Assembly: GCF_003334815.1 (NCBI RefSeq)
Contig: NZ_QOWO01000014.1
Source: Escherichia coli
GTDB lineage: Bacteria; Pseudomonadota; Gammaproteobacteria; Enterobacterales; Enterobacteriaceae
Strand: one strand, 5' to 3'
DNA: 64,000 bases
Part shown: piece by piece, positions 4,856 through 59,378 of the stretch
Position numbering within the stretch: the stretch's first letter is position 1
Layout of the letters: each line of letters begins with the position of its first letter
Translations under genes and position numbers: made by a program
The notes under the pieces: model-generated
Database searches by the model: none
What the model saw: only the letters and a program-made list of their open reading frames with translations
What the model was told of the DNA's origin: nothing

Positions 4856-5224
4856 AATAAAAAAAGGGAGCACTGTATTCACAGCGCTCCCGGTTCGTTT
4901 CGCAGCATTCCAGCTACTTTTGTTGCTCCCTGCTCATCCTTGACAACTTTTCCTCTGGCCTTGCGGCCAATCGTTCATCCTGAACTATTGCTTCCTGCTC
5001 ACACCACCCCGATGTGATACTTCATCCTGAAGTGTCCCTGGCCTTCCTGACCCACCGAATCATCCTGACCGGTTCTCATTCTCCATCCTGGAGGTGTCCT
5101 TTAACGCGTCCTGCGTCATCCTCTTCGCTTCATCCAGAAGCCTTTCCCTGAAACACCATCCTGGTGTGTCCTGCAGAAGTGTCATCATCCTGATGTTCAC
5201 TTCGTTGTCTGACTCCCTGTCGAC
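4856..5224 (-). ncRNA. csrB: CsrB small RNA (CsrA-sequestering); ends approximate to within about 5 nt
   Basis: Minus strand carries about 18 repeats of CAGGA(U/A)G / AGGA motifs (seen as catcctg / tcctg on plus strand 4930..5220) and ends in a GC hairpin plus U-run (plus 4857..4889); no credible ORF. Confidence 0.85.
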
Positions 5225-23395: not shown

Positions 23396-23601
23396 ACTTC
23401 CTGAGCCGGAACGAAAAGTTTTATCGGAATGCGTGTTCTGGTGAACTTTTGGCTTACGGTTGTGATGTTGTGTTGTTGTGTTTGCAATTGGTCTGCGATT
23501 CAGACCATGGTAGCAAAGCTACCTTTTTTCACTTCCTGTACATTTACCCTGTCTGTCCATAGTGATTAATGTAGCACCGCCTAATTGCGGTGCTTTTTTT
23601 T
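23396..23601 (+). ncRNA. gcvB: GcvB small RNA; ends approximate
   Basis: Starts ACTTCCTGAGCCGGAACGAAAAG, contains the G/U-rich seed tgtgatgttgtgttgttgtgtttg (23461..23484) and ends in hairpin gcaccgcctaattgcggtgc plus T8; divergent from gcvA as in the known arrangement. Confidence 0.85.
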
Positions 23602-26595: not shown

Positions 26596-26693
26596 GCCTG
26601 ATGCGCTACGCTTATCAGGCCTACATAACTCCTGCAATATTTTGGATTTGCATGATTTGTAGGCCGGATAAGGCGTTCACGCCGCATCCGGCA
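26596..26693. repeat. Pair of REP elements (BIME-like) in the tcdA-mltA gap
   Basis: gcctgatgcgctacgcttatcaggcctac (26596..26624) and gtaggccggataaggcgttcacgccgcatccggca (26659..26693), classic REP palindromes in opposite orientation. Confidence 0.7.
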
Positions 26694-28085: not shown

Positions 28086-28162
<77 letters not shown>

Positions 28163-53147: not shown

Positions 53148-56514
<3,367 letters not shown>

Positions 56515-56580
56515 TCAGTAAAAGCGAATGGAGGGAGATTACACGAGATAAAGAACGCGAGCGACAGTAAATTAGGTGCG

Positions 56581-56668
56581 AAAAAAAACCTGCGCATCCG
56601 CGCAGGTTGGTGCAAGAGACAGGGTACGAAGAGCGTACCGAATAATCTCACCAATCAATACCTCTGGG
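56581..56668 (-). ncRNA. omrA: OmrA small RNA (88 nt)
   Basis: Minus strand reads CCCAGAGGTATTGATTGGTGAGATTATTCGGTACGCTCTTCGTACCCTGTCTCTTGCACCAACCTGCGCGGATGCGCAGGTTTTTTTT. Confidence 0.87.
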
Positions 56669-56782
56669 ATCTTGATTGTGGTCTGCACGACGACTCTTCG
56701 CCAGCGAGAAAACGCAAAGGAATGAAGGGAAATGCAACGAGGTGTGTAAATTGTCGGTTACTGTTACAGATTGATGACCGGC

Positions 56783-56864
56783 AAAAAAAACCTGCGCATC
56801 TGCGCAGGCTGGTGTAATTCATGTGCTCAACCCGAAGTTGACTTCACCTATCAATACCTCTGGG
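56783..56864 (-). ncRNA. omrB: OmrB small RNA (82 nt)
   Basis: Minus strand reads CCCAGAGGTATTGATAGGTGAAGTCAACTTCGGGTTGAGCACATGAATTACACCAGCCTGCGCAGATGCGCAGGTTTTTTTT; shares 5' and 3' ends with omrA. Confidence 0.87.
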
Positions 56865-57077
56865 ATCACCACTTTAGCAACCTGAAGCCAAACGCCACCA
56901 GCGGTCAATCGCAACAGCGTTTCGCAAAGTGTAACCAAAGGTTTGCAATCTCTTTTTTTGTCTTACTTATTTGCGTTTGGCTCACATTCCCACGATGAAA
57001 ACACGCCACCCCTTGAACCAACGGGCGTTTTCCGTAACACTGAAAGAATGTAAGCGTTTACCCACTAAGGTATTTTC

Positions 57078-58109
57078 ATGGCGACCATAAAGGATGTAGC
57101 CCGACTGGCAGGCGTTTCAGTCGCCACCGTTTCCCGCGTCATTAATAATTCACCCAAAGCCAGCGAAGCTTCCCGGCTGGCTGTGCATAGTGCAATGGAG
57201 TCTCTTAGCTATCACCCGAACGCCAACGCCCGTGCGCTGGCGCAGCAGACCACTGAAACGGTCGGTCTGGTCGTTGGTGATGTTTCCGATCCGTTTTTCG
57301 GTGCAATGGTGAAAGCGGTCGAACAGGTGGCTTATCACACCGGTAATTTTTTATTGATTGGCAACGGTTACCACAACGAACAAAAAGAGCGTCAGGCCAT
57401 TGAGCAACTGATCCGCCATCGCTGTGCTGCGTTGGTCGTCCATGCCAAAATGATCCCGGATGCTGATTTAGCCTCATTAATGAAACAAATGCCCGGTATG
57501 GTGCTGATCAACCGTATCCTGCCTGGCTTTGAAAACCGTTGTATTGCTCTGGACGATCGTTACGGTGCCTGGCTGGCAACGCGTCATTTAATTCAGCAAG
57601 GTCATACCCGCATTGGTTATCTGTGCTCTAACCACTCTATTTCTGACGCCGAAGATCGTCTGCAAGGGTATTACGATGCCCTTGCTGAAAGTGGTATTGC
57701 GGCCAATGACCGGCTGGTGACATTTGGCGAACCAGACGAAAGCGGCGGCGAACAGGCAATGACCGAGCTTTTGGGACGAGGAAGAAATTTCACTGCGGTA
57801 GCCTGTTATAACGATTCAATGGCGGCGGGTGCGATGGGCGTTCTCAATGATAATGGTATTGATGTACCGGGTGAGATTTCGTTAATTGGCTTTGATGATG
57901 TGCTGGTGTCACGCTATGTGCGTCCGCGCCTGACCACCGTGCGTTACCCAATCGTGACGATGGCGACCCAGGCTGCCGAACTGGCTTTGGCGCTGGCGGA
58001 TAATCGCCCTCTCCCGGAAATCACTAATGTCTTTAGTCCGACGCTGGTACGTCGTCATTCAGTGTCAACTCCGTCGCTGGAGGCAAGTCATCATGCAACC
58101 AGCGACTAA
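57078..58109 (+). CDS. galR: Galactose operon repressor (LacI family)
   Basis: 343-aa ORF with HTH MATIKDVARLAGVSVATVSRVINN. Confidence 0.93.
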   Translation: MATIKDVARLAGVSVATVSRVINNSPKASEASRLAVHSAMESLSYHPNANARALAQQTTETVGLVVGDVSDPFFGAMVKAVEQVAYHTGNFLLIGNGYHNEQKERQAIEQLIRHRCAALVVHAKMIPDADLASLMKQMPGMVLINRILPGFENRCIALDDRYGAWLATRHLIQQGHTRIGYLCSNHSISDAEDRLQGYYDALAESGIAANDRLVTFGEPDESGGEQAMTELLGRGRNFTAVACYNDSMAAGAMGVLNDNGIDVPGEISLIGFDDVLVSRYVRPRLTTVRYPIVTMATQAAELALALADNRPLPEITNVFSPTLVRRHSVSTPSLEASHHATSD

Positions 58110-58115
58110 CCGCAG

Positions 58116-59378
58116 TTAAAGCAATTCCAGCGCCAGTAATTCTTCGATGGTCTGGCGACGGCGAATCAACCGCGCCTGACCATTATCAAACAGAACTTCT
58201 GGTAACAGCGGACGGCTATTGTAGTTGGATGACATTGATGCGCCATATGCCCCTGTATCATGCAGTACCAGATAATCACCTGCCTTCACTTCCGGCAAGG
58301 CGCGGGTTTCAACATTTCCCCCTTCCTGCTGGGTAAAGACATCGCCCGATTCACATAACGGTCCGGCGACGACGGTTTCCACCGTTGGCGCGTGTTCCAG
58401 AGAACGACCATCAGCTGCCAGGGCACTGATATGGTGGTAACTACCGTACATTGCCGGGCGCATCAGATCGTTGAACCCGGCATCAACCAGCACAAAGTGG
58501 CGGCTCCCCATTTGTTTGACGCTCCGCACCTGAGTAATTAATACGCCAGACTGCGCTACCAGGAAGCGACCCGGTTCAATTTCCAGTTTCACAGGGTGGC
58601 CCAAATGGCGGGCGATTTGCTCACGCGCGGCATTCCACAGACCATAATAATGTTCGGTATCAACCGCCTCTTCACCCTGTTGATAAGGAACAGAAAGCCC
58701 ACCGCCCGCAGAAATAGCCTGTAAATCCTGACCGAATTCGATGACCTGACGCACCATAGCACCACACACCTGTTCCAGATGGGCATAATCAACGCCAGAA
58801 CCAATGTGCATGTGAATGCCGACCAGCTGCAGATGATGACGTTGTATCACGTCCAGTGCGGCGGGCAGATCGGTGTACCAGATACCGTGCTTGCTGTTTT
58901 CGCCACCGGTATTGGTTTTTTGGCTATGTCCGTGACCAAACCCCGGATTAACGCGCAGCCATACCCGATGCCCTGGCGAAACCTGGCCCAGTTGGTCGAG
59001 CATATCAACAGAACCCGCATTCACCGGAATTTGCAATTCACTGACGCGTTCAAGCGTCGCCTGATCGATAACATCTGCCGTAAAAACAATATCATCGGGG
59101 TGCGTTTGCGGATTGTAACCCGCCGCCAACGCACGCTCTATTTCGCCTAACGAGACGGAATCCACTTTCACGCCCTGCTCACGCATTAAGCGCAAAATAT
59201 GAATATTGGAACAGGCTTTCTGTGCAAAGCGCACCACATCAAACTGTTTCAGCGCTGCAATCTGCCGACGAATAATTTGCGCATCGTAGACCCACACCGG
59301 GCAGCCAAATTCAGCGGGCAAACGCAGCAGATTTTCGGCGGTGAGATCGGTATCGGTGCTGAACAGTGAATGTGGCAT
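58116..59378 (-). CDS. lysA: Diaminopimelate decarboxylase
   Basis: 420-aa ORF MPHSLFSTDTDLTAENLLRLPAEFGCPVWVYDAQIIRRQIAAL... Confidence 0.93.
   Translation of the reverse strand: MPHSLFSTDTDLTAENLLRLPAEFGCPVWVYDAQIIRRQIAALKQFDVVRFAQKACSNIHILRLMREQGVKVDSVSLGEIERALAAGYNPQTHPDDIVFTADVIDQATLERVSELQIPVNAGSVDMLDQLGQVSPGHRVWLRVNPGFGHGHSQKTNTGGENSKHGIWYTDLPAALDVIQRHHLQLVGIHMHIGSGVDYAHLEQVCGAMVRQVIEFGQDLQAISAGGGLSVPYQQGEEAVDTEHYYGLWNAAREQIARHLGHPVKLEIEPGRFLVAQSGVLITQVRSVKQMGSRHFVLVDAGFNDLMRPAMYGSYHHISALAADGRSLEHAPTVETVVAGPLCESGDVFTQQEGGNVETRALPEVKAGDYLVLHDTGAYGASMSSNYNSRPLLPEVLFDNGQARLIRRRQTIEELLALELL

Follow-up and report, generated by a model that had tools for sequence, protein, structure and literature searches.

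Two short, closely related sequences follow one another on the same strand between aas and galR in the 64,000 nt stretch of Escherichia coli DNA analysed here (the window), and the question they raise is whether they are genes and, if so, which ones. The original prediction, made from the sequence alone, took them for the paralogous sRNA genes omrA and omrB at 56581-56864, and both the names and the coordinates prove to be right. All 88 bases of omrA and all 82 bases of omrB are identical to the K-12 MG1655 genes b4444 and b4445, respectively; the MG1655 record annotates ncRNAs of these lengths between aas and galR, which is also where they lie among the genes of the window. There are no mismatches to K-12 over the 584 nt intergenic region or over 1701 nt of surrounding sequence, and the 5' seed, where divergence from the reference OmrA and OmrB had been named as the contrary finding, aligns to them with zero divergence. 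The Rfam OmrA-B model (RF00079) matches omrA with 96.6 bits and omrB with 86.1 bits, in each case more than 45 bits above its gathering score of 40 bits, and model positions 1-87 of 87 are covered in both. Because the sequence is identical to that of K-12, the experimental literature on that strain applies directly to this locus.

It is thus virtually certain that the two elements are the E. coli sRNA genes omrA and omrB, which are paralogous and independently transcribed and whose products are Hfq-dependent and act in trans. This feature is already known and there is nothing new at the locus, as had been foreseen; both copies are simply the annotated K-12 genes. The positions of the two genes, their parts and their neighbours are collected in Table 1. 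Of 5426 complete E. coli genomes, 5424 contain a 701 nt region of this locus (5320 of them with at least 99% identity), and the median number of loci per genome is one. We note that four further RNAs in the window reach Rfam gathering level, namely CsrB (4856-5215, minus strand, 380 bits), GcvB (23396-23601, plus strand, 199 bits), one tRNA (28086-28159, plus strand) and ES036/CssrF (26617-26659, minus strand, 46.5 bits, threshold 37.6), and all of them fit an origin from the E. coli chromosome near 2.92-2.98 Mb.

Table 1. Genes, RNA parts and promoter elements of the omrA-omrB locus (window positions; promoter positions are counted from +1)
Feature	Position	Strand	Description and basis
aas	54334-56493	-	flanks omrA downstream, same strand
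omrA	56581-56668	-	88 nt; +1 at 56668, 3' end at 56581; aas-proximal copy; Hfq-dependent sRNA
omrA intrinsic terminator	56581-56608	-	G+C-rich stem, GGAU loop, U8 tail; terminator scan and fold
OmrA-specific central stem-loop GGUACGCUCUUCGUACC	56623-56639	-	minimum-energy and centroid folds, hairpin scan
OmrA nt 1-21, target-pairing 5' end CCCAGAGGUAUUGAUUGGUGA	56648-56668	-	motif search, fold, homologues, target complementarity
omrA promoter region	56669-56782	-	whole 114 nt spacer; footprint of 20 loci
omrA -10, CACAAT	56675-56680	-	-12C, -13C; distance from annotated +1
omrA conserved TGTAACA	56762-56768	-	-100 to -94; footprint of 20 loci
omrB	56783-56864	-	82 nt; +1 at 56864; galR-proximal copy; Hfq-dependent sRNA
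omrB intrinsic terminator	56783-56810	-	CCUGCGC-AGAU-GCGCAGG, then U8; terminator scan, fold, homologues
OmrB nt 1-21, target-pairing 5' end	56844-56864	-	differs from OmrA at nt 16 alone (A for U)
omrB -10, TAAAGT	56871-56876	-	-12T, sigma-70 type; distance from annotated +1
Second omrB-specific conserved block CTGTTGCGATTG	56906-56917	-	-53 to -42; nearly invariant in footprint of 20 loci
OmpR-type box in omrB promoter CAAACCTTTGGTTACACTTT	56926-56945	-	-81 to -62; the published box B2; includes T-75 and A-68
galR	57078-58109	+	flanking gene, divergent from omrB
lysA	58116-59378	-	flanking region, beyond galR

Anatomy and homologues of the two RNAs

The two RNAs had been described as about 85 nt long and 115 bp apart on one strand; they are indeed both on the minus strand, and the figures are slightly off, the lengths being 88 and 82 nt and the gap 114 nt. 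The near-identity of their ends and the divergence of their centres stand as described: 20 of the first 21 bases are the same in a pairwise alignment and 32 of the last 35 according to the repeat finder, and the central regions cannot be aligned and differ in length by 6 nt. The duplication that was read from this pattern fits the direct repeats found, whose start-to-start spacing is 196 nt for the 5' ends and 202 nt for the 3' ends, as well as the small shared promoter remnants discussed below. The 5' motif CCCAGAGGTATTGATWGGTGA (21 nt, CCCAGAGGTATTGAT[T/A]GGTGA) is present at exactly two places in the 64 kb window, 56648-56668 and 56844-56864, and has no matches in 100 dinucleotide-preserving shuffles of the window even when three mismatches are allowed. 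The 3' motif CACCARCCTGCGCRGATGCGCAGG-T8 (32 nt, CACCA[A/G]CCTGCGC[G/A]GATGCGCAGG-T8) is also present at exactly two places, 56581-56612 and 56783-56814, with no matches in shuffled window sequence.

In the predicted folds each RNA has an internal stem-loop, a G+C-rich terminator hairpin and, after it, eight U residues, and the folding energies have z-scores of -2.7 and -2.9 relative to shuffled sequences; the omrA terminator stem has eight pairs in the fold as it does in the Rfam model. The conserved, unstructured 5' end CCCAGAGGUAUUGAU-N-GGUG is present in both copies; that of OmrA is unpaired through nt 15 in the predicted fold, and the minimum-energy fold of OmrB pairs part of it. The terminator hairpin and its U-tail are predicted to form a typical Hfq-binding 3' module, and Hfq binding itself has been published (PMC2588501).

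Homologues were sought by scanning species-representative genomes (298 Gb) for the exact first 15 nt of the Omr RNAs, and the retrieved loci were then searched with a profile built from the two E. coli Omr RNAs. The two steps together found 71 full-length copies in 48 Enterobacterales loci, in the genera Escherichia, Citrobacter, Enterobacter, Kosakonia, Kluyvera, Pluralibacter, Mangrovibacter, Serratia, Edwardsiella, Pantoea, Erwinia, Dickeya, Pectobacterium and Rahnella, among others. About 70 seed matches outside the Enterobacterales are due to chance; none of them extended to a full-length profile match. In every locus where aas was found the copies adjoin it and are co-oriented with it, and in the Enterobacteriaceae they usually lie between aas and galR.

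In the alignment of these homologues nt 1-15 are invariant, which is partly a selection effect because this 15-mer was the search query, and nt 17-20, outside the query, are invariant as well. Nucleotides 54-60 (UU-N-CACC) and the terminator are invariant or nearly so, and nt 22-53 vary both in sequence and in length. The terminator stem is paired in 99.8% of cells across the 65 distinct homologues, compensatory double changes are seen at three of the eight pairs (G-C to A-U, U-A to C-G and C-G to U-A), and controls in which the pairing register was slid all collapse. The GUAC...GUAC stem of the OmrA-specific central stem-loop recurs, with sequence changes, in the OmrA-type copies of other genera.

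The Pantoea and Erwinia loci (L030, L059, L102 and L076/L077) are organised differently, with two copies about 2 kb apart rather than about 115 nt. In Pantoea stewartii (L030, 2747-4879) the gap between them holds a paralogue of an FtsI-like penicillin-binding protein (NF011685, 687 bits, under the 737-bit cutoff), and galR is separated from the first Omr copy by a BisC-family S/N-oxide reductase. The aas-proximal copy has a longer and different body and a CCCACGC/GCGUGGG terminator.

Promoters and OmpR boxes

A generic sigma-70 scan found no promoter for omrA or omrB, as is to be expected of activator-dependent promoters with poor -35 elements, and the -10 elements in Table 1 were placed by conservation and by counting from the annotated +1. 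The -35 hexamers, CTGGCG for omrA and CTGGTG for omrB, are poor, which also is expected since the promoters depend on activators. The base at -12 sets the sigma factor preference, -12C making omrA sigma-S dependent and -12T making omrB sigma-70 dependent (PMC12692685). When anchored on +1 and compared without gaps the two promoters are 27% identical, which is the chance level; the duplication signal in them is confined to short blocks, the shared remnants being CGCTGG at the -35 region and TTGCG-TT near -45.

The footprint of 20 loci shows further conserved blocks of the omrA promoter at about -79 to -62 and -57 to -40. Among the 19 other closely spaced two-copy loci, 16 (all but Serratia and two Edwardsiella) have TGTAACA at -100 of the aas-proximal copy together with a -10 that is CACAAT or a close variant, and 17 (all but the two Edwardsiella) have TTACAYTTTGC at about -70 of the distal copy, usually with -12T. 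Copy-specific conserved promoter boxes have been described (PMC13425233) and are reproduced by this footprint.

A search for OmpR boxes upstream of each copy, which had been proposed with the original prediction, gave a clear box for omrB and weak matches alone for omrA. The weight matrix used was made from six 20 bp sites, F1-F3 of ompF and C1-C3 of ompC, the classical OmpR sites, which were confirmed to be present and contiguous in the K-12 ompF and ompC promoters. The omrB box at -81 to -62 scores 11.3 bits, which places it among the top 0.01% of window positions and on a level with F1 and C1 when these are scored in a leave-one-out test, and it is nearly invariant in the footprint from Escherichia to Edwardsiella. 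The T-75C/A-68G mutation in this box lowers OmpR activation from 81-fold to 3.3-fold and abolishes activation by RstA, which in that study was overproduced (PMC13425233). Upstream of omrA the best match to this crude six-site matrix is -0.8 bits, in the top 0.85% of positions, and this weak score is not evidence of absence because the matrix comes from six sites only and its own members C2 and C3 score poorly in the leave-one-out test. Direct binding of OmpR at omrA rests on published experiments, not on the sequence.

The second omrB block, CTGTTGCGATTG, is probably the published box B1, although that equation is ours; RstA control requires B1 as well as B2, and no factor was identified for B1 (PMC13425233). 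The copy-specific blocks are almost invariant from Escherichia to Serratia and Edwardsiella, and it may tentatively be suggested, with somewhat more doubt than confidence, that they are sites for additional transcription factors. The clearest candidate is the omrB block at -53 to -42, and the omrA blocks at about -100, -79 to -62 and -57 to -40 are others. One example would be a missing partner of RstA, which can activate omrB in vivo although it neither binds nor activates in vitro (PMC13425233). If this were true, omrA and omrB would be wired to further signals. The idea is not a new one, as the question of what binds these blocks was already raised by the authors of that study. We note in addition that a perfect 10 nt inverted repeat, AGCCAAACGC / GCGTTTGGCT at 56886-56895 and 56973-56982 (-22 to -31 and -109 to -118), brackets the omrB promoter; it is probably not meaningful, as by our own estimate chance alone would yield about 0.2 such repeats per 700 nt.

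Several loci differ from E. coli in how bodies and promoters are combined. The single copies of Enterobacter species, Superficieibacter, Lelliottia and Pseudescherichia (loci L027, L028, L037, L099 and L114) have an OmrA-type body under an omrB-type promoter with a B2-like box at about -70, and correspond to the chimeras of PMC13425233; in L027 the sRNA is about 2.8 kb away from aas. According to the same study the omrB promoter is always the one kept in single-copy species, and the locus of Siccibacter colletis (L080, 3950-4450) looks like an exception to this rule, as its single copy has an OmrA-type body and an OmrA-type promoter (TGTAACA at -100 and CACAAT at -10) and a second copy is absent from the 313 nt up to galR. 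In Mangrovibacter yixingensis (L092, 1699-1986) the two copies have nearly the same OmrB-like centre and yet two distinct promoter types (TGTAACA at -100 and TTACAYTTTGC at -70), which suggests either gene conversion between the transcribed parts or a separate duplication. Finally, the omrA promoter of E. coli strain 300709 (NZ_CP025903.1; L125, 1734-2947) is interrupted at about -63 (about window position 56731), between omrA and omrB, by an IS3-family transposase that cuts omrA off from the conserved boxes upstream; judged by this arrangement, the strain may be a natural variant that has lost activated omrA expression.

Other readings of the repeats

The two elements immediately precede aas, with which they share a strand, and the end of omrA is 87 nt before the aas start codon, so a hairpin with a U-tract in either could in principle be a cis-acting leader or attenuator structure that governs read-through into aas, rather than part of a trans-acting RNA. 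A permissive Rfam scan even gives sub-threshold Leu_leader matches over the two copies, but at 27.8 and 23.2 bits these fall far short of the gathering score, which is 50, and OmrA-B matches the very same bases at 86-97 bits. (The sub-threshold matches in the intergenic region, which also include SgrS at 15.2 and TeloSII_ncR49 at 24.5 bits, are terminator-driven noise far under their gathering scores.) An attenuator is very improbable here, because a separate conserved promoter precedes each copy, its -10 correctly spaced from a conserved +1, K-12 annotates discrete ncRNAs, and discrete 82 nt and 88 nt transcripts that act in trans from a plasmid have already been published, as has trans-regulation with compensatory mutations (PMC2588501). 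In Pantoea and Erwinia, moreover, one copy is about 2 kb and another gene away from aas, and its ends are still the same.

That the region encodes small proteins, the repeat being a duplicated coding sequence, is more improbable still. There are open reading frames to consider in the six frames, at 56655-56822 (minus strand, 55 aa), 56418-56654 (minus strand, 78 aa), 56576-56725 (plus strand, 49 aa) and 56771-56998 (plus strand, 75 aa), but they are annotated neither in K-12 nor in a PGAP-annotated strain, and the repeat units cross their boundaries and frames. Conservation, too, follows the RNA ends and promoter boxes and not a coding sequence, and the insertions and deletions of many lengths in the homologue alignments are a better fit to RNA ends and promoter blocks than to an open reading frame. 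Chance similarity, or a generic dispersed REP-type intergenic repeat with no specific function, has nothing in its favour beyond the presence of an intergenic repeat that contains a palindrome, and can be dismissed, as the motifs are confined to their two sites in the 64 kb and absent from the shuffles, their conservation across the Enterobacterales is at a single syntenic locus, and there is a median of one locus per E. coli genome rather than the many copies of a dispersed repeat.

Targets, mechanism and related sRNA systems

As the trans-acting sRNAs OmrA and OmrB, the two elements should pair with known mRNAs, and complementarity to K-12 target sequences is indeed found. Seed nt 1-9 pair with ACUUCUGGG at +12 to +20 of ompT and with CCUUUGGG at -17 to -10 of ompR, and the duplexes, at -17 to -19 kcal/mol, are equalled by 0.4-1.4% of shuffled seeds. 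The published pairing of nt 2-10 with the cirA ribosome-binding site is recovered, with a predicted duplex energy no better than that of shuffled seeds because the pairing is short, in line with PMC2588501. That study reports that OmrA and OmrB bind Hfq and that control needs Hfq and RNase E. It places the pairing of the conserved 5' end close to the translation start in ompT and cirA and within the 5' UTR in ompR, and it reports that control of every target tested is lost when the 5' end is mutated and regained with compensatory changes in the target. The earlier description of the pair as known regulators of outer-membrane proteins agrees with this and with PMC12692685, but is too narrow for the regulon of today, which also spans motility, biofilm, their own activator ompR-envZ, btuB, and carbon and lipid metabolism; csgD, flhDC, flgM, dgcM, btuB, fecA, ppc, actP and fabA, and feedback on ompR-envZ, were added by the later literature.

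Taken together, these data and the published experiments give the following mechanism. Each gene is transcribed from its own activator-dependent promoter to its own intrinsic terminator, and the shared single-stranded 5' end (nt 1 to about 21) pairs imperfectly with mRNAs, usually near the ribosome-binding site or in the early coding region. Among the known targets are ompT, cirA, fecA, fepA, ompR-envZ, csgD, flhDC, flgM, dgcM and btuB, to which ppc, actP and fabA were added more recently; pairing blocks translation and often triggers decay by RNase E, and the shared 3' hairpin and U-tail serve in both transcription termination and Hfq binding. EnvZ-OmpR activates both genes and the RNAs repress ompR-envZ, closing a negative feedback loop. 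The diverged promoters supply different inputs, omrA depending on sigma-S through -12C and omrB on sigma-70 and responding to overproduced RstA, and the diverged central regions allow for a few copy-specific targets. In this scheme the identity of the genes, their anatomy and conservation, the covariation of the terminator, the promoter motifs and the complementarity of seed and targets were computed here, and the dependence on Hfq and RNase E, the regulators and the target effects in vivo are from the literature.

Characterisation of OmrA and OmrB goes back to 2001-2006 and is still active, a review having appeared in 2025 and new papers on targets and regulators in 2026. The sequences studied here agree with OmrA (RygA, SraE; b4444) and OmrB (RygB; b4445) of family RF00079 in sequence, length, strand, flanking genes and promoter elements, and no difference from the K-12 pair was found; the window contains either the reference locus itself or that of a strain identical to it over at least 1.7 kb. 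The locus is a textbook case of sRNA duplication in which the seed and terminator are retained and the promoters and central region have diverged.

Other paralogous sibling sRNAs of enterobacteria and vibrios include GlmY/GlmZ and the Qrr sRNAs, and PrrF1/PrrF2 are a tandem pair in Pseudomonas. They are like omrA and omrB in being duplicated, often in tandem, with a shared seed and terminator and with diverged promoters that integrate different signals, and unlike them in that their sequences are unrelated and their regulators and targets are different; OmrA and OmrB are also redundant on most targets, whereas GlmY and GlmZ are hierarchical (this comparison is drawn in part from the introduction of PMC13425233). 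MicF and MicC are similar to OmrA and OmrB in being Hfq-dependent and in remodelling the envelope, and MicF is likewise activated by OmpR, its gene adjoining the C1-C3 sites in the K-12 ompC promoter region. They belong, however, to other sequence families with other seeds, are single-copy, and act on the porin mRNAs ompF and ompC, whereas the targets of OmrA and OmrB are TonB-dependent receptors, OmpT and OmpR.
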